From positions 13,188-77,187 of the forward strand of contig JBAQUS010000004.1 in assembly GCA_049297675.1 (NCBI GenBank): a stretch of DNA of 64,000 nucleotides, written 5' to 3'. Each line of letters starts with the position of its first letter. Position 1 is the first letter of the stretch. The DNA comes from Minisyncoccia bacterium. GTDB taxonomy: Bacteria; Patescibacteriota; Minisyncoccia; Phycocordibacterales; DATDWN01. Position numbers and translations under genes: made by a program. The notes beneath the pieces are model-generated. The model was not told the DNA's origin. It saw nothing but the letters and a program-made list of their open reading frames with translations, and ran no database searches. Shown piece after piece: positions 31,885 through 55,077 of the stretch.

Positions 31885-32433
31885 ATGAAGTTGCCGACTG
31901 TATCAGCGAATACTATCGTCCGAAGTTGGGATGGTAGACTAGTCATTGTCAAACACAAACAGAAAGCCTACGACATTAGGCTCGAATGTCCGTGGGGTCT
32001 GCCAGGAGGTGGACTTGAAGACGGTGAAACTCCAATCGAAAATGCGATAAGAGAAACGAGACAAGAGATTGGAGTGGATATCAAAGCTCCAAAACTCATC
32101 GGAACGTTCATCCAGAGAGTTAGGGATGACGAAGCTCCGGGTGGCTTCGTCAGTGGCGTACTCCACCTTTTTGTATCAATTGAGTCAGATTTGGAAGGAA
32201 GGATCAGATGGGAAGGATGTGACGAAATAGAGGAGATTGCCCTTCTTGCACCCAAATCCATCTGCGAAAAACGACAGGAGATCGGACTCGGCTACTTTCG
32301 CATGATTCTCAAGTACATGAGATGCATCGACGGTGCTGACAGGTACGGATTCCAAAACCTCCGACTGTCCTTACCTGTTGAGTATCCACGATTCGGACTA
32401 AAAGACAAAGACCAACTTGTTCTTCAGACTTAA
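31885..32433 (+). CDS. Nudix hydrolase (compositionally atypical, about 48-50% GC)
   Basis: Nudix box GGGLEDGETPIENAIRETRQEIGV. GC clearly above the neighbours. Hairpin GGGGTGTGCC...GGCACGCCCC after the stop. Confidence 0.65.
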   Translation: MKLPTVSANTIVRSWDGRLVIVKHKQKAYDIRLECPWGLPGGGLEDGETPIENAIRETRQEIGVDIKAPKLIGTFIQRVRDDEAPGGFVSGVLHLFVSIESDLEGRIRWEGCDEIEEIALLAPKSICEKRQEIGLGYFRMILKYMRCIDGADRYGFQNLRLSLPVEYPRFGLKDKDQLVLQT

Positions 32434-44257: not shown

Positions 44258-44580
44258 TGAGTAACAGAAATCAAAGACTAAGTGAAATTCTAAGAGATTT
44301 AGGTGCCCGTTTTCTGCTTCTTAATGGAAACAAATCCTCGCTTTTAACCGTGACAAAATTGGAATTAACAAGGGATGGAAAAAATGCTACTATTTTCTTT
44401 ACGGTTTTTCCAAATAGTTTTGAAAAAACTGCTCTTGAGTTTGCCAAGAGAAAAAGAAGTGATTTTAGAGAATTCGTTAAGGAAAATTCAAAACTAGGAC
44501 ACCTCCCCCAGTTTGATTTTGAAATTGATCTAGGAGAGAAAAACCGTCAAAAAATTGACGGATTATTAAATGAAAAATGA
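44257..44580 (+). CDS. rbfA: Ribosome-binding factor A
   Basis: Overlaps the infB stop. RLSEILRDLGARFLLLNG...LLTVTKLELTRDGKNATIFFTVF is a KH-like RbfA pattern. Confidence 0.7.
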   Translation: MSNRNQRLSEILRDLGARFLLLNGNKSSLLTVTKLELTRDGKNATIFFTVFPNSFEKTALEFAKRKRSDFREFVKENSKLGHLPQFDFEIDLGEKNRQKIDGLLNEK

Positions 44581-44650
44581 CCTAGTCGCCAAGTGGTAAG
44601 GCAAAGCTCTGCAAAAGCTTTATACGGCGGTTCGATTCCGCCCTAGGTCT
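44579..44650 (+). tRNA. tRNA-Cys (anticodon GCA)
   Basis: Acceptor GACCTAG/CTAGGTC, anticodon arm AAGCT-CTGCAAA-AGCTT, T-arm GGCGG-TTCGATT-CCGCC, discriminator U. Confidence 0.75.
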
Positions 44651-44719
44651 CCCTAAAACATTTACACAGTAAGTGTTTGGGTGAACAATTCATCCAGAGA
44701 GTTGTTGTAACCAAATTTT

Positions 44720-44801
44720 GCTCGGGTGGCGGAACTGGTATACGCGTTCGACTTAAAATCGAATCCCGAAAGGGGTATGGGTTCGATTCCCATCCCGAGC
44801 A
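44720..44801 (+). tRNA. tRNA-Leu (anticodon UAA), long variable arm
   Basis: Acceptor GCTCGGG/CCCGAGC, anticodon arm TTCGA-CTTAAAA-TCGAA, T-arm ATGGG-TTCGATT-CCCAT. Confidence 0.75.
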
Positions 44802-44850
44802 CAAAATTGAAATAAACTAAAATTAATGTTATAAATTTAAAGTAAAATTT

Positions 44851-44923
44851 GCGCCTATAGCTCAGCTGGTAGAGCAGATCCCTCTTAAGGATAAGGTCCC
44901 AGGTTCGATCCCTGGTGGGCGCA
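44851..44923 (+). tRNA. tRNA-Lys (anticodon CUU)
   Basis: D-arm TAGCTCAGCTGGTAGAGCA, anticodon loop CTCTTAA, T-arm CCAGG-TTCGATC-CCTGG, acceptor GCGCCTA/TGGGCGC. Confidence 0.7.
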
Positions 44924-44999
44924 CAAGCCGAAATAATCTAAACTGCTTTAGATTATTTCGGACTTGTGCGCAACCAGAATATACCTTTAGGTGATTCTG
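44919..44999. repeat. Two consecutive strong hairpins after tRNA-Lys: 44919-44972 (about 24-bp stem; the outer arm reuses the tRNA 3' end) and 44963-44999 (10-bp stem)
   Basis: GCGCACAAGCCGAAATAATCTAAA-CTGC-TTTAGATTATTTCGGACTTGTGCGC, then CAACCAGAAT...ATTCTGGTTG. CTTGTGCG recurs at 45016-45023. Confidence 0.5.
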
Positions 45000-45119
45000 G
45001 TTGAGGTTTCGGGCTTGTGCGTTATTAAAACATGTTTACTAAATAGTTTGAATCGTGGTTTCAAATTTGTGTGTGAAAGTAAGATAGCAATATAATGTTT
45101 TAGTTTCAAGTTAACAATT

Positions 45120-45203
45120 GGGCGAGTGGCGTAACAGTAGCCGCGCCAGTCTTAGGAACTGGTCCCGTAAGGGGTGGAGGTGCGATTCCTCTCTCGCCCA
45201 CCA
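45120..45203 (+). tRNA. tRNA-Leu (anticodon UAG), long variable arm, CCA encoded; atypical D-loop
   Basis: Acceptor GGGCGAG/CTCGCCC plus ACCA, anticodon arm CCAGT-CTTAGGA-ACTGG. The D-loop lacks the usual GG. Confidence 0.6.
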
Positions 45204-45491
45204 ATAAGGAACTAAAGGGTTCTGAATGCGAACCCAAGCGGAACGCCCGAAGGGCGTGCCAAGGATTTTCGCCTGATTCTGCAAGAGAATTCGGGAATTT
45301 TGGTGTGCAAGCGTGCAAGGTTTTTTCGTCGAGACGCAGGTTCGAGCCAAAGATTTCTTTGGCATAGACCTTTTTAGTAAAAAGATCTGAATCAGAAGCG
45401 ATTCTGTCCAATGATTCCGCGTCTTTTAGCCATTGTTGGAAAGGTGCGAGCCAATCATTCTACTTGTGTGAAAGAGAGGTCATTTCTCATC

Positions 45492-45515
45492 TGTCAAACA
45501 TCCGATGTTTGACAG
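45492..45515. repeat. REP-like palindrome TGTCAAACATC-C-GATGTTTGACA (copy 1, rayT1-associated)
   Basis: Perfect palindrome with 11-nt arms, 41 nt beyond the rayT1 stop. Confidence 0.6.
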
Positions 45516-45555: not shown

Positions 45556-46215
45556 TTATACTTCAAAAGTTTTGGTGTCAGCTTTTACCCCGCTATTTTT
45601 TACAAATTTATAATATTCATATTTATCCTCAAATTGGTCTAATACTACTTCCCTTTTTAATATTTCCTTCCAACGATTTTCTGTAACGTAATCCTGATAG
45701 CTAGACCACTCATATTTTTCTGGATTATTACTCCAATGTGAAAGCTCTTTTGGATTTAAATGAACATACGCAGATAAATGTAGTAGTTGTTCATTACTTT
45801 CAACATGAACTGCTTTATACGGACCTTCAAAAAGATGCCCCGAAATTTTATATTTAGTATTGAAGTATTTTGTATACGAGTTAAGTACACGTTGCATATA
45901 TTTCCCAGTTCCACCTTCTTCATTTTCACGAACTATTAGATGAAAATGGTTAGTCATCATCGCAAAAGAAACTAGGTCAACGTATCTTTTCGAAATTATC
46001 TTTTCGTAATCATCACTGTTAATGTCAAACATCCGATGTTTGACATAATTCGAGATCATTCTTGAAACTTGAGGAAAAATAACATTTGCTTGAAAGTATA
46101 AAATGAGAAATAAAAATCTAATTCTATCTCTATCATCCTTGAAGATGATTTTCTTCCCAACTCCCCGATTATATATATGATAGTGTTCCCCAATTTCAAT
46201 ATTATCTCTTCTCAT
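45556..46215 (-). CDS. IS200-like Y1/HUH transposase, RayT (REP-associated tyrosine transposase)-type, paralog 1
   Basis: YHIYNRGV N-terminus, HUH motif HFHLIV, and Y-containing C-terminal helix (GPYKAVHVE). REP palindromes on both sides. Homologous to 54366-55043. Confidence 0.65.
   Translation of the reverse strand: MRRDNIEIGEHYHIYNRGVGKKIIFKDDRDRIRFLFLILYFQANVIFPQVSRMISNYVKHRMFDINSDDYEKIISKRYVDLVSFAMMTNHFHLIVRENEEGGTGKYMQRVLNSYTKYFNTKYKISGHLFEGPYKAVHVESNEQLLHLSAYVHLNPKELSHWSNNPEKYEWSSYQDYVTENRWKEILKREVVLDQFEDKYEYYKFVKNSGVKADTKTFEV
46022..46046. repeat. REP-like palindrome ATGTCAAACATC-C-GATGTTTGACAT (copy 2) lying inside the rayT1 coding sequence
   Basis: 12-nt arms. Encodes VKHRMFD in rayT1; the same peptide is read from the opposite strand because of the palindrome. 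Confidence 0.55.
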
Positions 46216-46240: not shown

Positions 46241-46277
46241 ATCCATCTGTCAAACATCGGATGTTTGACAGATGGAT
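46241..46277. repeat. REP-like extended palindrome ATCCATCTGTCAAACATC-G-GATGTTTGACAGATGGAT (copy 3; centre inverted relative to copies 1 and 2)
   Basis: Perfect palindrome with 18-nt arms, 26 nt upstream of the rayT1 start. Confidence 0.6.
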
Positions 46278-46367
46278 AAGATCGATTATTAGAAAGGCTT
46301 GTGATTTTTTTAAAATCGATCTTGTTGCAAATAACGGCTTAATGGTGGGGGTTTTTTGACGACACCC

Positions 46368-46401
46368 TTGACTTGACTTTTGGATTTAATTGTGATAGAA
46401 T
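46368..46401 (+). promoter_or_regulatory. Near-consensus sigma-70 promoter: TTGACT (x2, overlapping), 17-nt spacer, extended -10 TGaTAGAAT
   Basis: Read directly: -35 TTGACT at 46373-46378, 17 nt, TG at 46393-94, TAGAAT at 46396-46401. It sits at the left edge of the high-GC block. Confidence 0.55.
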
Positions 46402-46499
46402 GGTGAGCAGAACGGGAGCGGCAATTCTTGCCCCTTTCGTCGCTCCTTGACACTCTAGTTTTTAGTTTACAAGCGCTTAAATGCGCAGAAGAGGTTAGC

Positions 46500-48038
46500 A
46501 TGTTTTACACTATCGCAATTTCCGTTCTCGTTGCAGTGACAATCTCGGTCCTGATCGTCGTCGGTTGGCTTATCTTCCGTGTCGTACAGACACGGAGGAG
46601 GACACCAGTCATTCATGATTGGGCGCGGAGGGATGATAGTCGCGAGACGACACCCTCCCCGACTCCTACCACGACATCCGGAATTGATGTCGACCTCACA
46701 CTGAATCCTCCCCGCCATACTCCGAAAGGAAATAGCGGAAGAGAACCCGAACCGTTGCCTCCATGTAAATGGAAAAAAGGCACGTTTCGTATCATCTACT
46801 GGGCGGTAATAATTCCGCTCGGAATGATATCTGTCTTCGTTCTGGAGTGGGGTATCCTATCGGGTCTGCCACTCACGTGGAATACCCTGTTGGAATTCAA
46901 CGCAACTTCAGTTGGGCTGACCCTTGTTGTTCTCTGGGTAGCCTACTTCTTGGACACATTCAAGATCGTCAAGTTCAATGAACTCGGCGGTCGTGTGGTA
47001 CTTGGTAGTTTCGAGTCCTACTCTGACGGGATAACTCTCGCACCGAGATGGATTACCGATCTGGTCAAGGTAACGAGAGCAACTGAAGAACTTGATCAAC
47101 CTCACAGTGACCCGTCAAAAATTTTCTGGGGAGACCTAAGCAAACTTCCAGACGGGAAAATCCCGGACGGTATGGTACTACCAATTCGTGTGCCATTCCT
47201 CCAGAGGTCAAGCGATGAAGACTTCGAAGTTCGCTGGCCACTTGAAACAGGAGAGGTCAAAACCAGAATTACAAAGGGCTATGACCTTCTTAGTGCAACG
47301 GATGCTCCTGTCGAGTATTCGATCGGAATCAGATTCATCGACATCCAACGTGTTATCGTTCGACTCAGGTCACTCAAAGCAGCCTACGACTTGGCAACAG
47401 ACTATGCAGAGACGCTCATAACGGGCACTTTGCAGAAAATGTCCGCTGCCGAAGCCCAAGTACTGAAACAGGAAATTTCAGTACATCTTGAGGAACAGAC
47501 GGACAACCGTGTTTTCCAATCGTACGGCTTCGTGATCGACTTCGTGACTTTGAAGTCAATCGGGACTTCGCACACAATCGCGGAATCGCGAGCGCAGGCG
47601 GCAGCAGCTGTCAACCTTGCGAATAAAACGGTTAGAGACGCAAAAGCTACAGCTAAGGCAACCGAACTTCAAGGTGCTTCTGTGGCTGGAGCTGAATTGG
47701 CACTACTCAACGCGAGGTCAGTAGGACTACGCAACATCGTCGACGCTGCGACTTCACGGTCAGGGGGAGTTGAACTCGCCAAAGCTATGGAAGCGGCACG
47801 CGCTATTCAGTTTGGCGCAGATTCGACAGTTGTTGTCCCAGGTGGAAACACTGGGGACGGTCTCGGACTCTTTGGCGCAGCGGTCGGTACAGCAATTAGT
47901 GCTTCGGCCGCACTTGGGAGAAAACCAGCTGGTGAAAAAGCTCTAACAGAGACCCAACCAGCACAACCAACAACTACTACAACACCCCCTGCACGTGGCG
48001 ACAGACGTGGCCATAAGAAAGGGGGTAAGAGGAGTTAG
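46500..48038 (+). CDS. SPFH/band-7 (stomatin/HflK/C-like) membrane protein, high-GC
   Basis: ATG 46500 with RBS GAAGAGG (the track ORF starts at an upstream TTG). TM helices, then VKFNELGGRVVLGSFESYSDGITLAPRWITDLVKV, then YGFVIDFVTLKSIG...AESRAQAAAAV...AEL coiled coil with Ala/Glu-rich tail. About 55% GC. Confidence 0.55.
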   Translation: MFYTIAISVLVAVTISVLIVVGWLIFRVVQTRRRTPVIHDWARRDDSRETTPSPTPTTTSGIDVDLTLNPPRHTPKGNSGREPEPLPPCKWKKGTFRIIYWAVIIPLGMISVFVLEWGILSGLPLTWNTLLEFNATSVGLTLVVLWVAYFLDTFKIVKFNELGGRVVLGSFESYSDGITLAPRWITDLVKVTRATEELDQPHSDPSKIFWGDLSKLPDGKIPDGMVLPIRVPFLQRSSDEDFEVRWPLETGEVKTRITKGYDLLSATDAPVEYSIGIRFIDIQRVIVRLRSLKAAYDLATDYAETLITGTLQKMSAAEAQVLKQEISVHLEEQTDNRVFQSYGFVIDFVTLKSIGTSHTIAESRAQAAAAVNLANKTVRDAKATAKATELQGASVAGAELALLNARSVGLRNIVDAATSRSGGVELAKAMEAARAIQFGADSTVVVPGGNTGDGLGLFGAAVGTAISASAALGRKPAGEKALTETQPAQPTTTTTPPARGDRRGHKKGGKRS

Positions 48039-48040
48039 TC

Positions 48041-49396
48041 ATGCCTATCGTCGCAATCGTTATCGTACTCCTCTTTCTCGTCTTCGGACGAAGGAAAGGA
48101 AACGATAGCAAATACATTCGAGAGTCAGAGGTCGTTGATACCAAGCCAAATGGTAAAACAGAGACGGAAAAACACACTCTGTGGTGGCACGTCGGCCACT
48201 ACAAACTCGTGTGGCTACAGCACTGGAGGAGGTCAACAACCCTCCGTGTCTCCGCCGGACTGCTTGCTTTCGGGCTGGGAGTCTGGATCTTCCCTCTAAC
48301 GAGGGAATGGTGGAGTTCGCAGTGGGTTAGCTTCGGCCTTTACCTAATTGCCGCTCTGGCCATTATCTGCCTTGGGTTCATGTTGGGCCCGGCGCAGAAA
48401 GTGCCGTTCGAGTACAGGCTCCGGCCTTTATTGCTCATCATTGGAATTGCGATCGCAGTCTACGGACTCGGTGCGAACACCAAGTTCGGTCAGAGCACCT
48501 GGTCGTGGATCGCCTCTCACTTCGGGAGAACAGATGGAAACATCGGTCTAACTCCAGAGGAGACAGCTGACCTACCGGACGGGTTCGTCGAGAGCGACAA
48601 TCCGAACCACTGGTCAAACCACGTCACCGATGAAAATCGTGATGTGGTCAACATGGTCCGGGCTGCCGTCCAGAGCGAACTTGTCCCAACCCATTGGGAC
48701 CTCGCCATGCAGATCTGCGGTATGGAATCGGCATGGTTTCGTCAGTTCGATGAGGACGGTAATGTTCTCAGAAACGTCAAAAACAATGACGGGTCAATCG
48801 ACTACGGAGTCTGTCAGATCAACTCCATATGGATGAAAAAGTCCAAGGAGTTGGGAGATGGTTTCCGGATCGACGGGCCGGCTGACGAAAACATTCGAAT
48901 GGCCATGTGGATCTGGACGAATCCAGAAACACGTGGGCCACGCGAGTGGACCGGTACGTACAACACAGCTCTTGCTGTTGTCCGCAATGCGCGGACAACG
49001 CCAGAGACTGTGAACGCACGTCGAACTCCAGAGAGGTCACCGGCTGAACAGGAGACTGTTCAGGCTGGGATCGCACTGGTCTCACAAACTGAGCCAATTC
49101 ACCAGCAACGCAACCCACAAAGAGAGGTGTCTGTCACAGCCATGTTTCCAGGATGGGTCACCGACAAGTCCTCCATGACCTGCGACCTCGAAGAGGACGC
49201 AGAAATCGAGGCGGTCGGTGAGCCTGGAATATTTTACTGGAGTGACACAAACTTCAGTACGAACATCCTAAAGCCTGGAGAAACTGCTTCACTTGCTGGA
49301 TTCAAATGCGTTGCAGTCAGATACTTTTCCCCAACGTTTGGGGGAAAACTGACTGAGGGTCAGAGCCCTTACGCAATCGTGAGACGATACAAATAA
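48041..49396 (+). CDS. 4-TM membrane protein with a lysozyme-like (C-type lysozyme/SLT-like) catalytic domain; possible VirB1-like peptidoglycan hydrolase
   Basis: MQICGMESAWF...DGSIDYGVCQINSIWMKK parallels hen lysozyme AKFESNF...DGSTDYGILQINSRWW (catalytic Glu and Asp regions). RBS AGGAG. About 55% GC. Confidence 0.55.
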   Translation: MPIVAIVIVLLFLVFGRRKGNDSKYIRESEVVDTKPNGKTETEKHTLWWHVGHYKLVWLQHWRRSTTLRVSAGLLAFGLGVWIFPLTREWWSSQWVSFGLYLIAALAIICLGFMLGPAQKVPFEYRLRPLLLIIGIAIAVYGLGANTKFGQSTWSWIASHFGRTDGNIGLTPEETADLPDGFVESDNPNHWSNHVTDENRDVVNMVRAAVQSELVPTHWDLAMQICGMESAWFRQFDEDGNVLRNVKNNDGSIDYGVCQINSIWMKKSKELGDGFRIDGPADENIRMAMWIWTNPETRGPREWTGTYNTALAVVRNARTTPETVNARRTPERSPAEQETVQAGIALVSQTEPIHQQRNPQREVSVTAMFPGWVTDKSSMTCDLEEDAEIEAVGEPGIFYWSDTNFSTNILKPGETASLAGFKCVAVRYFSPTFGGKLTEGQSPYAIVRRYK

Positions 49397-49429
49397 ACTA
49401 GAGTTAGAGAGGAGTACACATGTTCGCAT

Positions 49430-49466
49430 GAGGCCGTTACCCGATAAGGGAACGGCCTCTTTTTAT
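49430..49466 (+). terminator. Rho-independent terminator of the high-GC operon (GAGGCCGTT...AACGGCCTC plus TTTTT)
   Basis: 9-bp stem with an extra CCC/GGG inner extension and a T-run. Confidence 0.65.
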
Positions 49467-49492
49467 GCATGATGATATATAAAATTTCTCTA

Positions 49493-49525
49493 CAGAAAAC
49501 CGCTCAAGTTGTGAGCGGTTTTCTG
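49493..49525 (-). terminator. 14-bp hairpin CAGAAAACCGCTCA-AGTTG-TGAGCGGTTTTCTG, downstream of the pilin array (minus strand)
   Basis: Perfect stem. U residues lie partly within the stem. Confidence 0.5.
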
Positions 49526-49536
49526 TGACTAACTTG

Positions 49537-49827
49537 TTAATAGTTTCGTATTATAGCGTTGACTGCTGCGTTATTAGGTGCCACCCCGAAAGTGTTAAGG
49601 ACGAAGTGAACCAACCCATAAACCGAAAACATTATGACCATTCCCACTATTCCCCAGACCATGGAATCTCTGGACTCCTTTCTGGTATTTCCTTTATCGT
49701 CTGCATCAGAAGATAAAAACTTGATGGCCCCCCATACAAAGTACAGAAAGGCTATAGCAAACATGAGGAAAATCAATGGATTCAGTATAACGTTTGCTAC
49801 ATTACGTAGAAAAGGAACAATAGTCAT
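49537..49827 (-). CDS. TrbC/VirB2-like pilin paralog 1 (no signal peptide; two hydrophobic helices)
   Basis: FVWGAIKFLSSDADDKGNTRKESRDSMVWGIVGMVIMFSVYGLV conserved core shared with paralogs 2-7. Confidence 0.45.
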   Translation of the reverse strand: MTIVPFLRNVANVILNPLIFLMFAIAFLYFVWGAIKFLSSDADDKGNTRKESRDSMVWGIVGMVIMFSVYGLVHFVLNTFGVAPNNAAVNAIIRNY

Positions 49828-49852
49828 GTACTAGTTTCGTTAACTAGACTGA

Positions 49853-50206
49853 TTACAGACCTGTAACTGTTGGAACTGTACCAGTTGTGATGTTTTGAAC
49901 ACCAAATGTAGATTGTAACCATGCAACCAATCCGTAGATTGAGATCATGACTGCTATTGCAATCACACCCCAAATCATCTGGTTTCTACCTGCCTCCTGT
50001 GCCTTAGGATCCCCAGCTGAACGTAGGAATGTAACCAAGCCCCAGAAGAAGAACACTATCGCTAGACCGAAAACTATAGGGATAAGTGTTCTAACTGTTG
50101 TTGCAATGAAAGTAAGAAGTGCTTGCAAACCTGTTAAGTTTGGAGTCTGGGCGAAAGCCAAGACTGGAGCAAGAAAAGATCCTACTGAAATGACAATTTT
50201 TTTCAT
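49853..50206 (-). CDS. TrbC/VirB2-like pilin paralog 2 (signal peptide ending AFAQ)
   Basis: Signal peptide, then FFFWGLVTFLRSAGDPKAQEAGRNQMIWGVIAIAVMISIYGLVAWL. Confidence 0.5.
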   Translation of the reverse strand: MKKIVISVGSFLAPVLAFAQTPNLTGLQALLTFIATTVRTLIPIVFGLAIVFFFWGLVTFLRSAGDPKAQEAGRNQMIWGVIAIAVMISIYGLVAWLQSTFGVQNITTGTVPTVTGL

Positions 50207-50311
50207 TTTTTTGTTAATATTACGATTAATAATGCTATTATAGTACTTTTTAAAAATAATGCAAGTCCTCGGTCAAATAGACTCTGTGGATTAGTTTACT
50301 TCCAGTTATAC

Positions 50312-50689
50312 TTAGTTTGGACTAAAACATGTTTCAAAGTTAGTACAAGACTCAATACTAAAGACATTTCCAAGAAATGCCACTATTCCAAATAATGATA
50401 GAATGATGAACATGCCTATAATACCCCATAACATCCTTTGTTTTCCTTCCTCACGGGATTTAGAATCACCAGAATTTAGTACAAATTGTGCCACACCCCA
50501 TATAAAGAAAAGCAAAGCAACACTGCCTAGGATTGGTACTAATATATCAACTAAATCCTTAAATTCCTGAGCAAAAGTCTGAATAGTTTGAGCCGAAAGA
50601 ATGGTTGGAAAAATAGACCAAGACAAAGACACTACAAAAAATATTCTGCTGGTGTAACCATGAGAAAATATAAATTTTCTTACCATCAA
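50312..50689 (-). CDS. TrbC/VirB2-like pilin paralog 3 (signal peptide ending LSAQ)
   Basis: FFIWGVAQFVLNSGDSKSREEGKQRMLWGIIGMFIILSLFGIVAFL. Confidence 0.5.
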   Translation of the reverse strand: MMVRKFIFSHGYTSRIFFVVSLSWSIFPTILSAQTIQTFAQEFKDLVDILVPILGSVALLFFIWGVAQFVLNSGDSKSREEGKQRMLWGIIGMFIILSLFGIVAFLGNVFSIESCTNFETCFSPN

Positions 50690-50711
50690 AATAGTTAATG
50701 TTACAAAATTA

Positions 50712-51071
50712 TTATAAAGAAGTACAGATCATTGACCCGATTGGACACCCTGTTTGTGGTATCCCTAGAGCAGTATTTATAAATGCCACTATTCCGAATA
50801 TAGACATTATTACGAACATACCAACTACACCCCATATCATCCTTTGTTTTCCCTCTTCTCTCAGTTTGGTATCGCCAGCATTTAGAATAAATGTAGCTAC
50901 ACCCCACATAAAGAACATAAAAGCCAAACCGAAGACGATGGGTATAAGAAGTCGAACTATATTTCCGAATTCAGTCACTAGTGTTCTTACCACGGCTAGA
51001 CTCTGGGCAAAAATAAAAACAGGAAATAAAAGTTGTGGTGCATAAATTAAAAATTTTAGATTTTTCTTCAT
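50712..51071 (-). CDS. TrbC/VirB2-like pilin paralog 4 (signal peptide ending FAQ)
   Basis: FFMWGVATFILNAGDTKLREEGKQRMIWGVVGMFVIMSIFGIVAFI. Confidence 0.5.
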   Translation of the reverse strand: MKKNLKFLIYAPQLLFPVFIFAQSLAVVRTLVTEFGNIVRLLIPIVFGLAFMFFMWGVATFILNAGDTKLREEGKQRMIWGVVGMFVIMSIFGIVAFINTALGIPQTGCPIGSMICTSL

Positions 51072-51140
51072 ATTTTTTATTTATTTCTATTTATTACTAT
51101 CAGTTATGCATTATAATACATACAACACAAAAGTACAAGG

Positions 51141-51524
51141 CTAAAATCTAATGAAAACAAAGGCAGGATCAGCATCAGTAGAGCCATTCAACCCTACAGC
51201 GTTTATAACAACACCAATGATTGCTCTTACAGATAGTAGGACAAATAAAGCAATTGTTCCCCAAAGCATATATTTTCTTCCATTTTCTATTTCCGTTTTA
51301 TTTCCAGATCGAATAAAAAATTTAGAAAGACCCCAAATAAATACTAAAACAGCTAAAGAAAGAAAGGCTGGCAGGATTGTGTTGTAAATAAGTTCTCCTG
51401 TGGTGAAGGCGGCATCTCCAAATGTGCCACCCGGAGGTATAAGTTGGGCATAAGCAATAATCGGAAAAACACTGACAACAAGGTTTGAAATGAACCTGTA
51501 GTGCTTTAAAAAAAAAGTTTTCAT
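51141..51524 (-). CDS. TrbC/VirB2-like pilin paralog 5 (signal peptide ending AYAQ)
   Basis: VFIWGLSKFFIRSGNKTEIENGRKYMLWGTIALFVLLSV. Confidence 0.45.
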   Translation of the reverse strand: MKTFFLKHYRFISNLVVSVFPIIAYAQLIPPGGTFGDAAFTTGELIYNTILPAFLSLAVLVFIWGLSKFFIRSGNKTEIENGRKYMLWGTIALFVLLSVRAIIGVVINAVGLNGSTDADPAFVFIRF

Positions 51525-51536
51525 TATTGATAAATT

Positions 51537-51899
51537 TTAACCAACAGTGATTAGTTGACTAACCGTATTTCTAACCAGCTCTGATATGGCCACAGCTCCG
51601 AGGAGAATTCCTCCGCCTATGAGAGCCCAGAGAAGTCTCTGTTTTGCCTCGCCAAGTTTTTTCTCATTACCTTGGGCAGTTACAAAAGTAAAGCCTGCAT
51701 AAATAATGTACATTACAACCACCACGGCTCCTATAGGCAAAACCACGTTGTTAAGGAGTGCAGTTAAAATATCAATGAGATTGCTTCCTGCTTTGGTGGC
51801 CGGATTGGTAATGGTAATATTTTGAGCGAACAAAACTACTGGCAAAATAATATTAGCGAGTATCAGAAGAATTTTTGTGTATTTTTTATATATTTTCAT
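51537..51899 (-). CDS. TrbC/VirB2-like pilin paralog 6 (signal peptide ending LFAQ)
   Basis: MYIIYAGFTFVTAQGNEKKLGEAKQRLLWALIGGGILLGAVAI. Confidence 0.45.
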   Translation of the reverse strand: MKIYKKYTKILLILANIILPVVLFAQNITITNPATKAGSNLIDILTALLNNVVLPIGAVVVVMYIIYAGFTFVTAQGNEKKLGEAKQRLLWALIGGGILLGAVAISELVRNTVSQLITVG

Positions 51900-51903
51900 A
51901 TTA

Positions 51904-52314
51904 TTAACCTAGAAAAGTTGGAATATTATCATCTAATAATGCTGTGGTGATAAGTCTAACTAACACCCAGGCGATTATTATAATAGCAATACCCTGTACA
52001 ACTTTAAGAAGCATACCCGCGGCTTTTGCCCGCTCCGAAGCACTCTCTCCACCCATCATAAACCTAAAGCCAGCCCAAGCGATAACTATAACAGAAAAAC
52101 CTAGGGCAAACTTAGTTCCTTCGTTTGTCACTCGTCTTACGGCTCTTATCAGGTCATCAAATGTACACTCTCCTGCTATCCCACCAACTCCGGGACACTC
52201 GTAAACAAACTGGGCATGGCTTACTAGTGGTGTAAAAAGAAAAAGAAAAACAAGAAACAGGAGAATTTTTGATGCCAAATTATTTAAAAATGTACTTCTC
52301 ATTTTGTTAAACAT
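51904..52314 (-). CDS. TrbC/VirB2-like pilin paralog 7 (signal peptide ending SHAQ; Cys pair in the mature N-terminus)
   Basis: VIAWAGFRFMMGGESASERAKAAGMLLKVVQGIAIIIIAWVLV. Confidence 0.45.
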   Translation of the reverse strand: MFNKMRSTFLNNLASKILLFLVFLFLFTPLVSHAQFVYECPGVGGIAGECTFDDLIRAVRRVTNEGTKFALGFSVIVIAWAGFRFMMGGESASERAKAAGMLLKVVQGIAIIIIAWVLVRLITTALLDDNIPTFLG

Positions 52315-53603
52315 TATGATTTGATTAGAGCAGTCAGTTCTGTTTCCGCTCTGTTTAAGGCATCAGATGCTCTAGACCTTCCACTAGTTATGCTCTCAAT
52401 CATATCACGAAACAGATTTGAAGTTGCCTGTGGTTCAGGATCAATCCACGACCTGGAGATTAAGGCAGAATCATAGAATACTTGCATGTGAGCCTCTGGA
52501 GGCTTCACAGAAAGCATGTCTCTTCTTACAGGAGGTAGGTTTGTAATGCCACCTATTCCCTTTATAGCTTCGACCTCTGTCAGAGCGTTTAGGGCTATAA
52601 AGGAGGCCTGGATATTTTTGGATTGCTTTACAATGGATATACCGTAGAGATGTCCGAAAACTACTTTCTTTTTGCTATCTCTTATTTGTGGAACCGAAGT
52701 GACACCGTAATTTAGATTTGGATTTTTTTGTTGAATACCAACTAGCTCACTAGCAAAACCAAAATAAATAGCCAAATTTCCGGAGAGAAAGAAGTTGGAT
52801 GAAGATGGAAGGGACCTATTCCAGGAATATGAGACAAGGTTTGGATTAGAAAATTGGATGTAAAAATCTGTTGCTGACTGGCTCGGAGTCCTAGGATATC
52901 CGAACTGAAGGTTAAGCACTGTATCAAGCCCATTTTCCTCCCTCTGTATTATTGGTGTTCCAGCTTGGAGCATGAGCATTATGAGTAACTCCTTGGCACT
53001 TGTGATATTTCTCCATTCACCGAAAGCTATAGTTGATTGAGAAATATTGGCCTGACCGTCTTTTTTGGTGATCTTTGGAACCAAGTCTGGAATCTCGTCC
53101 CAGTATTTAGGAGGGGACGCAATAAAGTTGCTGGAGAATAAGTCTCTATTCCAATACATAACCATGGGATCAATAATGAATGGCAAAGCTAATATGCCTT
53201 CTGGAGTAAGAAACAATTCCCCTTCTTCTATAAACCTGTCCTTGAAATCCCTCTCTGGATAAAATTCCGATGGTATTGGATAAAGTTTATTTCTATTTTT
53301 GTAAACCAAATCCTCTCTAAGAATAACTATGTCTGGCCCTCTACCTTCTGCCAGAGCCTCGACAAAGTCTCTATCAAAATCTGATGGGTCCTTTCTGACA
53401 TACATCACTCTTATGTTTTTATTTCCAGAAAGTGACGAAGCTATATAAGCATTTGTAAATGCATCGTCCGAAATAGTTCCCCATGCGACTAGACCAGCAG
53501 ATACATTTGCTGTACCGGTATTTTTACTCAAGGCAAAAACCATAATACCTGCAACTATGGCCACAGAGAAGACGGCTATGACAGCTATTTTAAACGTACT
53601 CAT
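52314..53603 (-). CDS. ABC-transporter extracellular solute-binding protein, family 1 (MalE-like), TM-anchored
   Basis: N-terminal TM anchor. VMYVRKD...ALAEGRGPDIV, MYWNRDLF and WIDPEP motifs typical of SBP_bac_1. Stop/start overlap with pilin 7. Confidence 0.55.
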   Translation of the reverse strand: MSTFKIAVIAVFSVAIVAGIMVFALSKNTGTANVSAGLVAWGTISDDAFTNAYIASSLSGNKNIRVMYVRKDPSDFDRDFVEALAEGRGPDIVILREDLVYKNRNKLYPIPSEFYPERDFKDRFIEEGELFLTPEGILALPFIIDPMVMYWNRDLFSSNFIASPPKYWDEIPDLVPKITKKDGQANISQSTIAFGEWRNITSAKELLIMLMLQAGTPIIQREENGLDTVLNLQFGYPRTPSQSATDFYIQFSNPNLVSYSWNRSLPSSSNFFLSGNLAIYFGFASELVGIQQKNPNLNYGVTSVPQIRDSKKKVVFGHLYGISIVKQSKNIQASFIALNALTEVEAIKGIGGITNLPPVRRDMLSVKPPEAHMQVFYDSALISRSWIDPEPQATSNLFRDMIESITSGRSRASDALNRAETELTALIKS

Positions 53604-53640
53604 ATTCGCTGATTATAACAAGAAATCATTTTTTCTAAAA

Positions 53641-54168
53641 TTACATCTTCTTAAAGATTAATCCGTAGTGATGTGCTCCGGCGGAAATTTCCCTGTCTAT
53701 ACTAAAGCCCTGCTTTTCAAAAAGCTCTTTGGCTTTTGGTTTTTTAACAACATCGATCGGTTTTGGACCAATTCCACCGAATGAATCTGACCAGTCTATT
53801 ACCAATACCCTTCCCCCGGGTTTTAAAATTCTTTTGGCCTCTTTTATTGCCCCGACTTTATCATCTAGCTGAAAAAGAAGATTGCAAATAAAAACCAGAT
53901 CAACAGAAGAATCCCTAAGTTTTGCTCCATTTGGCTTTTCGACATTACCCCATACTACTTCTATGTTATAAAGGCCTTCTTTTGTTGAGTTATTTTTCAA
54001 TCTGGTCAGTAGCTCTTTATCTACGTCAATAGCGTAAACCCTACCAGTTGAAATGAGCGCCCTTGAAGCAGCCATGGAGTAATGTCCCGAGCCAGAACCA
54101 AAATCTGCAATATCCATCCCGGCCTGTATTCCACACTGCTCTATGTTTTTTATTGGATCGGAGAACAT
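53641..54168 (-). CDS. Class I SAM-dependent methyltransferase
   Basis: Motif I VADFGSGSGHYS. Post-I acidic residue (YAIDVD). Motif II-like LVFICNLLF. Confidence 0.65.
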   Translation of the reverse strand: MFSDPIKNIEQCGIQAGMDIADFGSGSGHYSMAASRALISTGRVYAIDVDKELLTRLKNNSTKEGLYNIEVVWGNVEKPNGAKLRDSSVDLVFICNLLFQLDDKVGAIKEAKRILKPGGRVLVIDWSDSFGGIGPKPIDVVKKPKAKELFEKQGFSIDREISAGAHHYGLIFKKM

Positions 54169-54341: not shown

Positions 54342-54362
54342 TTACTAGGGTAACCCTAGTAA
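54342..54362. repeat. REP-like palindrome TTACTAGGG-TAA-CCCTAGTAA (rayT2-associated, downstream side), followed by TTACTAGTAA
   Basis: Perfect 9-3-9 palindrome 4 nt beyond the rayT2 stop. Confidence 0.6.
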
Positions 54363-54365
54363 TTA

Positions 54366-55043
54366 CTAGTAACTATCTTTATATTCTAACCAATCAGTTA
54401 TATTATCATTAAAATCAAAGATACTTGAAAAATACTCAGGGAAATTAGTTTTGTCTAAAATCATACCCGCTTCCCTCTTTTGTCCGACATAATCTAAATA
54501 ACTAGAACAATCATAATTCGATAGAAATTTTTTAGCTTTACTAATGTTTTTTATTCCAGATTCTTTCCAGTCATATTCAATTAATTTAACTGGATTAAGA
54601 TGAATGTAAGAAAATAAATATTTCAAATATTCATCAGAGTCAGCATGTTCTGCTTTATATGTACCCTGAAACAACGAACCCACTCTATCATTTAATTTAT
54701 TAAAGTAGGTAGAATAGCCCGTAGTCAATTTTTCCATAAACATAGCTGTACCGCCCTCAACAATTTCTCTAACAAGAATATGAAAATGATTTGGCATTAA
54801 AACCCATGCTCCTATTGCAACGAGTTGCTCGCCCCTGTTAATATCTTTCAATGGTAAGTCTATTGTTGTGCTGTACCTATAAGGAAGAGTATTGTTTGCA
54901 AGATATAAGAGTCTAATAAATCTCTTATAATCATTCTGTGAAATAAAAATATCGCGCTTTTCAACTCCTCGATTATATATATGGTAAAACTCGCCTTCAG
55001 ATATGACTATTTTTCTTTGCATAGAAGCACTATATACTAACAA
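54366..55043 (-). CDS. IS200-like Y1/HUH transposase, RayT-type, paralog 2
   Basis: FYHIYNRGV, HUH motif HFHILV, GTYKAEHAD and YIHLNP motifs. Homologous to 45556-46215. Flanked by its own palindromes. Confidence 0.65.
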   Translation of the reverse strand: MLVYSASMQRKIVISEGEFYHIYNRGVEKRDIFISQNDYKRFIRLLYLANNTLPYRYSTTIDLPLKDINRGEQLVAIGAWVLMPNHFHILVREIVEGGTAMFMEKLTTGYSTYFNKLNDRVGSLFQGTYKAEHADSDEYLKYLFSYIHLNPVKLIEYDWKESGIKNISKAKKFLSNYDCSSYLDYVGQKREAGMILDKTNFPEYFSSIFDFNDNITDWLEYKDSY

Positions 55044-55046
55044 CTC

Positions 55047-55077
55047 TCATCTTACTAGGGTAACCCTAGTAAGATGA
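55047..55077. repeat. REP-like palindrome TCATCTTACTAGGG-TAA-CCCTAGTAAGATGA (rayT2-associated, upstream side)
   Basis: Perfect 14-3-14 palindrome 4 nt upstream of the rayT2 start. Same core as 54342-54362. Confidence 0.6.

Follow-up and report, generated by a model that had tools for sequence, protein, structure and literature searches.

Organization and base composition of the A-B operon

Positions 46373-49466 of the window (the whole 64-kb stretch of DNA that was analysed) form a single sigma-70-type transcription unit of 51-53% GC, surrounded by a Minisyncoccia genome of ~36% GC. The unit carries two genes, designated A and B, and the locus comprises the following features:

44579-45203: tRNA cluster
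45556-46215: IS200/RAYT-like gene, just upstream of A-B
46373..46401, + strand: sigma-70-type promoter, TTGACT-N17-TAGAAT with an extended -10 TG (consensus scan)
46402..46499, + strand: 5' leader of ~98 nt, with a conserved hairpin motif at 46406-46458 (alignment and folds)
46500..48038, + strand: gene A, WAX44_00830, 512 aa (Pfam, AlphaFold model, Foldseek, hydropathy scan)
48041..49396, + strand: gene B, WAX44_00835, 451 aa (homologue profile against PDB, Pfam on homologues, hydropathy scan)
49430..49466, + strand: intrinsic terminator of the A-B operon, a hairpin at 49430-49459 followed by TTTTTAT (fold energy)
49496..49522, - strand: second hairpin, AAAACCGCTCA-AGTTG-TGAGCGGTTTT, read directly from the sequence
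49537..52314, - strand: seven VirB2-like pilin genes (PF18895, T4SS_pilin), converging on the A-B operon (Pfam)
52314..54168, - strand: head of the pilin operon, encoding a TM-anchored SBP_bac_1-like protein (429 aa) and a small SAM-methyltransferase (175 aa) (Pfam)

The promoter matches the consensus at 10 of 12 positions and is unique within the 64-kb window. Its core, CTTGACTTTT-N11-TGATAGAAT, is kept in more than 20 syntenic loci, so that both the consensus scan and cross-locus conservation confirm the textbook promoter (TTGACT-N17-TGaTAGAAT) reported in an earlier note on this DNA. As the pattern is frequent in Clostridia too, we regard it as a generic strong promoter. The close spacing of the two genes, each with a Shine-Dalgarno site, was verified by direct reading of the sequence: the stop codon of gene A occupies 48036-48038, the ATG of gene B lies at 48041, and the Shine-Dalgarno motifs AGGAG and GAAGAGG can be seen. 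Downstream of gene B, the canonical terminator of the earlier note folds at -25.4 kcal/mol (z = -5.3), and was overlooked by a pattern scanner solely because its stem is bulged. A GC hairpin followed by a T run is also found 3' of gene B in the related loci L001, L002, L005 and L009. The second hairpin, on the opposite strand, is likely to be the terminator of the converging pilin operon.

Beyond the features described in the earlier note, comparative alignment points to a conserved, structured 5' leader RNA. A 5-bp covarying outer stem and an inner GGC/GCC hairpin that is invariant and has an AUUC loop are followed by GYUCYUUG and then by the Shine-Dalgarno sequence. The covariance model of the leader, R1, gave one match per locus in 17 loci, including three outside the training set, and matched no non-Patescibacteria contig among ~100 contigs with the same promoter pattern. 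Leader pair counts were 88% paired, versus 25-63% when slid. No Rfam match was found for the leader.

The jump in GC content from ~35% to ~55% that had been noticed across 46380-49440 was confirmed. In 400-nt windows, GC was 0.31-0.33 until 46399, 0.48-0.565 across 46400-49399, and 0.44 and then 0.35 past 49400; among 1-kb bins of the whole 64-kb window, the A-B block alone exceeded 0.45. GC3 was 0.48 in gene A and 0.60 in gene B, compared with 0.306±0.064 (maximum 0.46) in the 63 other ORFs, and GC1 and GC2 were elevated in A and B as well. Four-fold sites in A and B were nearly uniform (A.27-.30, C.22-.27, G.20-.21, T.25-.28), whilst those of housekeeping genes were not (A.33, C.13, G.12, T.41). 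The GC-rich stretch corresponds to the extent of the transcript, running from just past the -10 element to the terminator.

The proteins encoded by genes A and B

Gene A is predicted to encode three TM segments (residues 7-25, ~98-120 and ~133-151 in a hydropathy scan), together with a disordered loop rich in Pro and Thr, an SPFH domain, a long coiled-coil helix and a basic tail of low complexity. The Band_7 model (PF01145) that the earlier note expected to match falls below its curated cut-off of 23.6 on gene A itself (E = 0.23, 11.9 bits). A full HMMER search returned 92 relatives, and Band_7 matches 47 of the 50 that were aligned at E < 0.01 (best E 2e-17). The AlphaFold model (pLDDT 79) has strands in residues 154-279, helices in 282-340 and one more helix at 358-418, corresponding to an SPFH beta/alpha domain and a 60-residue helix. 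When this model was compared with the PDB by Foldseek, the top 35 matches were all SPFH cage proteins (best E 6e-11), with HflK/C, prohibitin, stomatin, erlin, flotillin and QmcA as the best fold matches. The alpha/beta fold, the long coiled-coil helix that follows it and the N-terminal membrane anchor are all present in the model, and we conclude from relatives and predicted fold that gene A encodes a divergent SPFH/Band-7 membrane protein, in agreement with the earlier proposal.

Gene B was proposed to encode a lysozyme-like protein with four TM segments, and profile matches, Pfam matches to homologues and a hydropathy scan all bear this out. The four TM segments are accompanied by a lysozyme-like domain at residues ~180-320 and a beta-rich, variable C-terminal domain. 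Charges flanking the TM segments place the C-terminal part outside the membrane by the positive-inside rule, and the lysozyme-like domain would accordingly face outward. Within this domain E229-S230, D254, G256, Q259-I260 and a TYN motif are invariant, and the catalytic motifs of the GH23/SLT family occur in the right order (E229-S230, G256...Q259-I260-N and T306-Y-N, invariant or nearly so in seven family members). A profile of seven gene B homologues matches C-type (GH22) lysozymes as its best PDB hit, at E ~1e-6 over the columns of the catalytic Glu and Asp, and aligns E229-S230 with Glu-Ser and D254 with Asp52. The match includes the Glu35-Ser36, Asp52-Tyr-Gly and Gln-Ile-Asn columns but extends over only ~80 residues (about 65-90 aligned residues, against ~125 in a full GH22 domain), and the family alignment has no conserved cysteine columns, unlike GH22 lysozymes with their four disulfides. 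GH22 is, to our knowledge, otherwise an animal family. The Pfam SLT model (PF01464) matches four of the seven homologues at E < 1 (best E 2.3e-5) and is a precomputed match on one homologue; Lys matches three of the seven. Gene B itself matches no Pfam model above threshold, SLT included, and shows a weak IagB motif match at residues 247-272. The structure model of gene B was unusable (pLDDT 41), and the lysozyme fold is consequently assigned from sequence profiles and motifs; these would place the domain best between GH22 and GH23 in the lysozyme-like superfamily.

The A-B operon resembles the SPFH-partner operons HflK/C-FtsH, QmcA-YbbJ and FloA/FloT-NfeD: an SPFH protein that is anchored in the membrane at its N-terminus and has a long coiled-coil helix shares its transcript, with translational coupling, with a multi-pass partner bearing a beta-rich C-terminal domain. 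Unlike the partners in HflK/C-FtsH and NfeD operons, B is neither an NfeD protein nor a protease (no NfeD or peptidase match; PF01957 is absent from gene B and six homologues at E < 1), and most members carry a lysozyme-like domain. The SPFH gene comes first, the reverse of the order in NfeD-SPFH pairs. Further differences from SPFH-partner operons are the divergence of A, which is too great for Pfam to call it in this genome, the association of the locus with pilin arrays, and its anomalous composition.

Compared with the hydrolases of type III and IV secretion systems, B shares the pattern Glu-Ser...N-x-D-G-S-x-D-Y-G-x-x-Q-I-N...Y-N with VirB1, IagB/IpgF and P19. It is membrane-anchored like the monoderm proteins PrgK, TraG-pIP501 and TcpG, and its gene adjoins VirB2-like genes. 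However, B has four TM helices rather than one, has no CHAP, LytM or NlpC domain, carries a conserved Asp where lysozyme C has Asp52, and is not encoded beside virB4. A survey of Patescibacteria with a VirB1 HMM, which B escaped, reported VirB1 to be missing from most VirB2-bearing genomes (PMC12102498).

Conservation and divergence of the locus

The succession of promoter, leader, A, B, five to seven convergent VirB2-like pilin genes, SBP-like gene and small methyltransferase gene was found in ~23 Patescibacteria contigs. Every A-family match that was looked up with enough contig flank has the arrangement; A, B, pilins, SBP-like gene and methyltransferase are present in L001, L002, L009, L010, L025, L037, L038, L091, L132, L133, L135, L137, L138 and L139, and the promoter, a GC-rich block and pilins in L080 and L112. 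In the ~23 contigs the pair keeps the same promoter, leader and position, while the upstream flanks differ. The pilin array is present at all related loci, and the SBP-like protein shows 56-84% amino-acid identity between loci. The link with a pilin system suggested by the earlier note is therefore well founded, given the seven adjoining PF18895 genes and the retention of the arrangement. Arrays of 2-11 VirB2-like genes occur widely in Patescibacteria, and in S. epibionticum, the one species tested, the pilins proved essential (PMC12102498, PMC10633639). No ORF in the 64-kb window has the size or family expected of VirB4 or another T4SS ATPase, and no candidate for VirB6 or a coupling protein was found there, so that the pilin genes are the sole link to a T4SS.

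Genes A and B diverge, or are swapped, much faster than their flanks. Between the window and L001, amino-acid identity is 95% for pilin-2, 84% for the SBP-like protein and 43% for B, and gene A gave no BLASTP match. At the DNA level, only the promoter-leader region and the B catalytic core align (72-79%), with flanks at 73%. The catalytic core of B thus tracks the flanks, whilst gene A and both ends of B are hyperdivergent or have been replaced in place. A-family clusters are nearly all singletons. Judged from BLASTP identities of 25-40%, gene A of the window clusters with its counterparts in L009 and L025, and that of L001 with those in L132, L037 and L002, a grouping incongruent with the flanks that suggests in-place replacement of A alleles among Patescibacteria lineages. 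No imperfect repeat of any part of A or B, as a diversity-generating retroelement would require, occurs elsewhere in the 64-kb window. The B-type genes of L091 and L139 lack the lysozyme-like domain, and peptidoglycan cutting is thus not a universal role of the pair.

Across 17 measured loci, the GC content of A and B together was 0.494±0.037, compared with 0.374±0.040 (range 0.33-0.50) in the flanks. It was at or above flank GC in all 17 (Wilcoxon 1.5e-5), and its regression on flank GC had a slope of -0.03 (p = 0.88). All AT-rich contigs among the ~23 show the anomaly, which is not seen where the genome is at 0.42-0.50 GC.

Origin and possible function of the A-B module

The presence of A-B at the same spot beside pilins in at least 20 related genomes, at ~50% GC throughout, indicates a conserved, fast-changing part of the cell-surface apparatus and not a one-off import. 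The most plausible reading, which we favour with some reservation, is that A-B is the local representative of a chromosomal module shared across Patescibacteria: a conserved, mosaic and rapidly turning-over envelope module of a pilin/T4SS-like apparatus. The divergence most likely stems from allelic diversity that has persisted for long at a locus facing the surface or the host, with alleles replaced by recombination, and allele exchange, recombination-associated GC bias or both would hold up the GC level; cassette exchange, recombination-linked GC bias and nucleotide-level selection are the candidate causes of the ~50% GC.

Hypervariable surface loci of atypical GC content at a fixed chromosomal site are known from O-antigen/rfb clusters and the pilA-accessory gene alleles of Pseudomonas. 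As in these loci, A-B lies between conserved flanks and has deep, flank-incongruent alleles, every one of them off the composition of its genome. It differs from them in having a GC-rich anomaly within AT-rich genomes, in comprising only two genes, and in spanning class-level lineages of a phylum rather than strains of a species.

A bolder version, which we hold only tentatively, is that the phylum-wide module has a composition decoupled from its host genomes, either as a private gene pool that distant Patescibacteria lineages continually exchange at one fixed, pilin-linked site or through a locus-specific GC-raising process (recombination-driven conversion and selection on the transcript are examples), and that it is tied to the epibiont-host interface, is controlled by the new structured leader RNA and supplies the "missing VirB1". 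A-B has ~50% GC and near-uniform four-fold sites in genomes of 33-50% GC, and turns over faster than any neighbouring gene.

It is also conceivable, if rather unlikely, that A-B is a vertically inherited core module whose ~50% GC is maintained by selection acting directly on DNA or RNA, its extreme divergence reflecting ordinary positive selection. Such selection could act on mRNA stability or structure, on avoidance of AT-rich signals, or on slow translation via rare GC-ending codons, the last serving membrane insertion and a low dosage of a wall-cutting enzyme. The independence of A-B GC from genome GC, the coincidence of the GC-rich stretch with the transcript, the tight expression control suggested by the strongly conserved promoter and structured leader, and the divergence of the B catalytic core at the flank rate would all fit. 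However, the shift extends beyond GC3 to GC1 and GC2 and thereby to amino-acid composition, for which a DNA-level bias is a more typical explanation than codon selection, and the A allele groups cut across flank relationships.

The earlier note had described A-B as horizontally acquired. A two-gene island recently acquired from a ~55% GC donor, landed beside the tRNA cluster and transposase and not yet ameliorated, is improbable: the atypical composition at all codon positions, the upstream tRNA cluster and IS200/RAYT-like gene and the incongruent A alleles are what such an event would leave, but the pair, promoter and leader hold the same position in every related contig examined despite differing upstream flanks, with the GC anomaly in all the AT-rich ones. 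Furthermore, A-B has no mobility gene of its own, and neither an integrase nor direct repeats were found at it; the RAYT-like gene, which has palindromes of its own and is missing from the other loci, is a separate, lineage-specific element; and no A or B homologue was found outside the pilin-locus context, or beyond Patescibacteria, in searches of 5.8 and 1.8 billion proteins, GTDB genomes, JGI metagenomes, phages and plasmids. Conserved synteny, a finding of the kind that the earlier note had named as grounds for refutation, contradicts a recent genomic island, and what stands of the claim is the replacement among Patescibacteria lineages that the A alleles suggest.

A domesticated phage- or ICE-derived lysis or superinfection-exclusion cassette, also raised in the earlier note, is more doubtful still. 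The combination of a membrane-anchored muramidase and a membrane partner is reminiscent of holin/endolysin or exclusion pairs, and the composition is atypical, but neither protein is matched by a PHROGs family at a meaningful E-value, tblastn against 50,697 phage and 72,556 plasmid records and PADLOC gave no matches, no locus has phage, integrase or conjugation genes beside A-B, and the pair keeps a fixed place in the chromosome, near gyrA. Far more speculative, and scarcely credible, is the idea that A-B is built for expression in, or delivery to, a host of different composition.

For the conserved envelope module that we favour, we propose the following mechanism. The strong promoter and structured leader would drive two translationally coupled membrane proteins from an operon converging on the pilin array. 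Held by its four-helix anchor, B may expose its lysozyme-like domain outside the membrane, as the positive-inside rule suggests, and cut peptidoglycan locally; its target would be the cell's own wall, for passage of a pilin/T4SS-like structure, and possibly also the wall of the epibiont's host cell. Gene A, of the HflK/C-stomatin-prohibitin type, may oligomerize on the membrane and confine, stabilize or gate B, by analogy with SPFH cages and their partner membrane proteins. The positive-inside rule would put the SPFH domain of A in the cytoplasm and the enzyme domain of B outside, and a simple cage around the enzyme may therefore be the wrong picture.

With its anomalous GC content and its textbook promoter and terminator, A-B has the look of a classic island although it is a conserved locus, and island callers would mislabel it in every genome. 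The fixed ~50% GC of such fast-evolving genes offers a clean natural case for studying how local base composition is determined in bacteria. A large part of bacterial diversity belongs to the Patescibacteria, which grow attached to other microorganisms. The conserved and previously unrecognized lysozyme-like membrane protein that, with its SPFH partner, is encoded beside their pilin arrays represents a concrete candidate for how pilin structures cross the cell wall, and a candidate, too, for attack on the wall of the host.

The A-B operon and its products

Genes A and B (WAX44_00830 and WAX44_00835) of this Minisyncoccia (Patescibacteria/CPR) metagenome-assembled genome are annotated as hypothetical proteins. 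Our analysis shows that the pair constitutes a single operon, with a strong promoter, a terminator and translational coupling between the two genes.

Features of the A-B module (window coordinates)
46373-46401 (+): sigma-70-type promoter, TTGACT-N17-TAGAAT with an extended -10 TG, from a consensus scan
46406-46458 (+): leader motif, inside the leader at 46402-46499, from cross-locus conservation and a covariance model
46500-48038 (+): gene A, 512 aa, SPFH protein
48041-49396 (+): gene B, 451 aa, 4-TM protein with lysozyme-like motifs
49430-49466 (+): terminator, from folding (-25.4 kcal/mol, z = -5.3)

The ATG of gene B lies 2 nt past the stop codon of gene A (48036-48038), and both genes carry good Shine-Dalgarno sequences. 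The TG-extended promoter, the canonical terminator and the close spacing of two genes with Shine-Dalgarno sites had all been proposed in an earlier note on this DNA, and each was recovered here. The promoter pattern by itself is unspecific, being abundant in Clostridia in a search of public genomes, and was useful only once joined to the leader motif or to R1, a covariance model of that motif.

We also observed a perfect inverted repeat (AAACTCTAGTTT / AAACTAGAGTTT) connecting the leader and the stop codon of gene B, through which the mRNA ends could pair. It is 10 nt long in the window (46452-46461 and 49395-49404) and 13 nt long in L001, a contig from a closely related genome (4296-4308 and 6941-6953). 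As the repeat is confined to these two lineages, it was rejected as a defining trait of the module.

Gene A is shown to encode a protein of the SPFH fold, in agreement with the earlier note. The match of gene A by itself to Pfam Band_7 was sub-threshold (E = 0.23), and no homologues were detected by word-indexed protein search. The family could be reached only by searching 1.84 billion representatives exhaustively with HMMER; this yielded 92 relatives, and 47 of the 50 that were aligned matched Band_7. In an AlphaFold model built on the alignment of relatives (pLDDT 79), the N-terminal helix is followed by a disordered loop and two more membrane helices, after which come an alpha/beta domain and a helix of 60 residues. 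Every top PDB match to this model belongs to the SPFH cage proteins (HflK/C, prohibitin, stomatin, erlin, QmcA and flotillin; E from 6e-11). Almost all 90%-identity clusters of the family (P0006-P0096) are singletons among 15 billion proteins, so the family is extremely diverse, thinly sampled, or both. Neither A nor B had a useful match in PHROGs, NCBIfam or PADLOC.

Gene B has four hydrophobic segments, and the charges flanking them suggest that the C-terminal two-thirds of the protein is extramembrane, on the outer side. Homologues were limited to four clusters in a word-indexed search of 5.8 billion proteins, and pattern searches of GTDB genomes and JGI metagenomes gave no match. Comparison of the cluster homologues with the B-type genes read at related loci defined the invariant positions of the family: E229-S230, Q235, D254, G256, I260, W264, N284, G299, W303 and T306. 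The family profile matches C-type lysozymes in the PDB (E about 1e-6) over the catalytic Glu-Ser and Asp-Tyr-Gly columns, 4/7 and 3/7 family members match Pfam SLT and Lys, and residues 247-272 of gene B itself weakly match the T3SS lytic transglycosylase IagB. Structure prediction from four sequences reached only pLDDT 41, so the assignment of a lysozyme-like domain is drawn from sequence; the previous description of gene B as a lysozyme-like 4-TM protein is correct. Two B-type genes of related genomes, in contigs L091 (258 aa) and L139 (2556-3326), keep the four TM helices and a C-terminal beta-rich domain, and lack the lysozyme-like domain.

Obligatory linkage to VirB2-like pilin arrays

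The A-B module was found on ~23 distinct Patescibacteria contigs, with the pilin array visible in 17 of them. Gene order and orientation are constant: the promoter, A and B converge on five to seven PF18895 pilin genes, accompanied by a TM-anchored SBP_bac_1-like gene (~430 aa) and a methyltransferase gene (175 aa), often with gyrA next. This order holds for every B homologue and for every A-family match on contigs with sufficient flank; the linkage of A-B to VirB2-like pilin arrays is shown to be obligatory. A promoter-pattern search of public genomes revealed more Patescibacteria loci of the same architecture, with MAG labels that include Paceibacterota, Parcubacteria and "Saccharibacteria", and a metagenome search with the promoter-plus-leader pattern contributed four further loci. 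Upstream of gene A, the window carries tRNAs and a RAYT-like gene, and other contigs carry pyruvate kinase, HisRS, a sigma factor or other genes; this variability indicates that the module is linked to the pilin side. No T4SS ATPase gene was found nearby in the window.

The earlier note had interpreted the operon as horizontally acquired. The recurrence of the same pair in the same pilin-linked order across related genomes argues against a recent island, and wide conservation in relatives is what the note itself had named as a refutation. The suggestion of a phage- or ICE-derived module fared no better: neither PHROGs and PADLOC nor the phage and plasmid collections searched gave a match, and A-B has no mobility genes of its own and no direct repeats at its sides. 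Two IS200/RAYT-like Y1 transposase genes (45556-46215 (-) and 54366-55043 (-)) bracket the whole A-B-pilin-SBP-methyltransferase locus. The palindrome CTGTCAAACATCCGATGTTTGACAG occurs around the first (45488-45515, 46019-46046 and 46244-46271) and TTACTAGGGTAACCCTAGTAA around the second (54342-54362 and 55052-55072). A composite transposon was rejected, because the two genes are 38% identical, have separate palindromes and are both missing where other genomes carry the syntenic locus.

Several other features of the locus were recorded. The methyltransferase gene that heads the pilin operon (53641-54168 (-)) shows 60-74% amino acid identity between distant loci and matches the PADLOC model mad2 (E = 1e-21), which probably represents generic methyltransferase/domain similarity; the pilins are a possible substrate. 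A 164-nt direct repeat of 74% identity (50375-50538 and 50781-50944) lies between adjacent pilin paralogues, as expected if the array grew via tandem duplication. Directly after tRNA-Leu(tag) there is a non-coding stretch of ~47% GC (45203-45480), overlapped by a spurious 101-aa ORF, in which no gene or RNA was called save for a weak permuted-tmRNA match (E = 0.05).

The 5' UTR of the operon is ~100 nt long and contains, in order, a covarying 5-bp stem, a GGC/GCC hairpin, the motif GYUCYUUG and the Shine-Dalgarno sequence. The inner hairpin, with its AUUC loop, is invariant. R1, trained on 12 loci, gave exactly one match per locus in 17 loci, including three untrained ones (E ≤ 1e-9), and zero matches in the non-Patescibacteria contigs among ~100 with the promoter pattern. 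Pairing was preserved in 88% of cells, compared with 25-63% when partners were slid. Covariation is modest: both partners are altered in two pairs, and 1/500 shuffles reached the observed score. RNAalifold on a MAFFT alignment of the leaders recovered the invariant inner hairpin only, and Rfam contained no match. We consider the leader, whose conserved motif is specific for this operon in Patescibacteria, a candidate new cis-regulatory or stabilizing RNA.

Base composition and mosaic evolution of the module

The GC jump described in the earlier note was confirmed: GC content rises from 0.31-0.33 to 0.48-0.565 over about 46400-49400 and then drops back, and no other 1-kb bin of the 64-kb window exceeds 0.45. 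All codon positions are shifted (GC1/GC2/GC3 of 0.58/0.48/0.48 in A and 0.54/0.45/0.60 in B), with GC3 of the other window ORFs at 0.306±0.064. Four-fold degenerate sites are near-equimolar in A and B, compared with T 0.41 and C+G 0.25 in housekeeping genes. Since GC3 and four-fold sites are shifted as well, amino acid composition was rejected as the sole source of the GC level.

Across 17 loci, A+B GC was 0.494±0.037 (range 0.43-0.55) and flank GC 0.374±0.040 (range 0.33-0.50). Module GC equalled or exceeded flank GC in all 17 (Wilcoxon 1.5e-5) and did not follow it (regression slope -0.03, p = 0.88); four additional loci showed the same pattern. The anomaly is absent from L138 and L139, contigs of genomes with 0.42-0.50 GC. 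The GARP/FYMINK amino acid ratio, our proxy for the composition of the whole A family, had a median of 1.11 in the 92 representatives vs 0.68 in other window genes. The composition anomaly is a property of the module rather than of this genome.

Two further deviations were noted. GC3 tends to be raised (0.39-0.48) in the pilin gene nearest B (49537-50206 (-), and its equivalents in three other contigs, L002, L009 and L133), with 0.25-0.30 in deeper array genes, as if the composition of the GC-rich unit spilled over in a short gradient. After A-B, a NUDIX hydrolase gene (31885-32433 (+)) is a second and milder outlier, with GC 0.47 and GC3 0.45, where GC3 averages 0.31 in the window.

The window and L001 are close relatives, with 84% amino acid identity in the SBP-like protein and 95% in pilin-2, whereas identity falls to 43% between the B proteins, and BLASTP finds no match between the two A proteins. 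In a DNA comparison of these two loci, the promoter-leader (79%) and the B catalytic core (72%) are the only segments that align inside the unit, about equal to the flanks (73%). Contig L009 is also close (pilin-2 83-84%), with A 33% identical to that of the window; its A is nearer to that of the distant contig L025 (36%) than to that of L001, which groups with the A proteins of contigs L132, L037 and L002 (29-36%). With a core at flank-like identity and A and the B ends far lower, the module is a mosaic, in which the core evolves at a normal rate and A and the B termini are hyperdivergent or replaced in place. A diversity-generating retroelement was rejected as the source of this variation, as no template/variable repeats were present in the window.

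A and the B termini have turned over many times at a constant ~50% GC, so the composition is no relic of a single un-ameliorated transfer, and must be maintained. Among the candidate causes, we rank first allele exchange within a Patescibacteria-wide pool, with recombination-associated GC bias possibly added. Selection at the nucleotide or RNA level is ranked second, and a single foreign origin third.

Possible function in the cell envelope

Among 3,035 Patescibacteria genomes covered by a published survey, 383 assemblies carried VirB2-like arrays, with 2-11 genes each, and the survey concluded that VirB1 is absent from most VirB2-bearing genomes (PMC12102498). The pilins of S. epibionticum are essential (PMC10633639). 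In our analysis, the sole annotated SPFH protein of S. epibionticum lies at another genome site. Our literature search found no paper on the A-B pair or its composition.

The A-B pair is akin to SPFH-partner operons and to the specialized peptidoglycan hydrolases associated with secretion systems. We propose that gene B cuts peptidoglycan where the pilin/T4SS-like structure is assembled, and possibly acts on the host cell too. By analogy with SPFH proteins that act with operon partners, gene A would oligomerize and scaffold or gate B. Three points temper this model: the enzyme domain is missing from the B-type genes of L091 and L139, the window has no T4SS ATPase close by, and the SPFH domain of A is predicted to be cytoplasmic, on a different side from the enzyme domain of B. 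The turnover of A and B may mirror selection at an interface exposed to host or phage. Taken together, A-B is an envelope operon that belongs to the pilin locus of Patescibacteria and is conserved, compositionally autonomous and quick to evolve.
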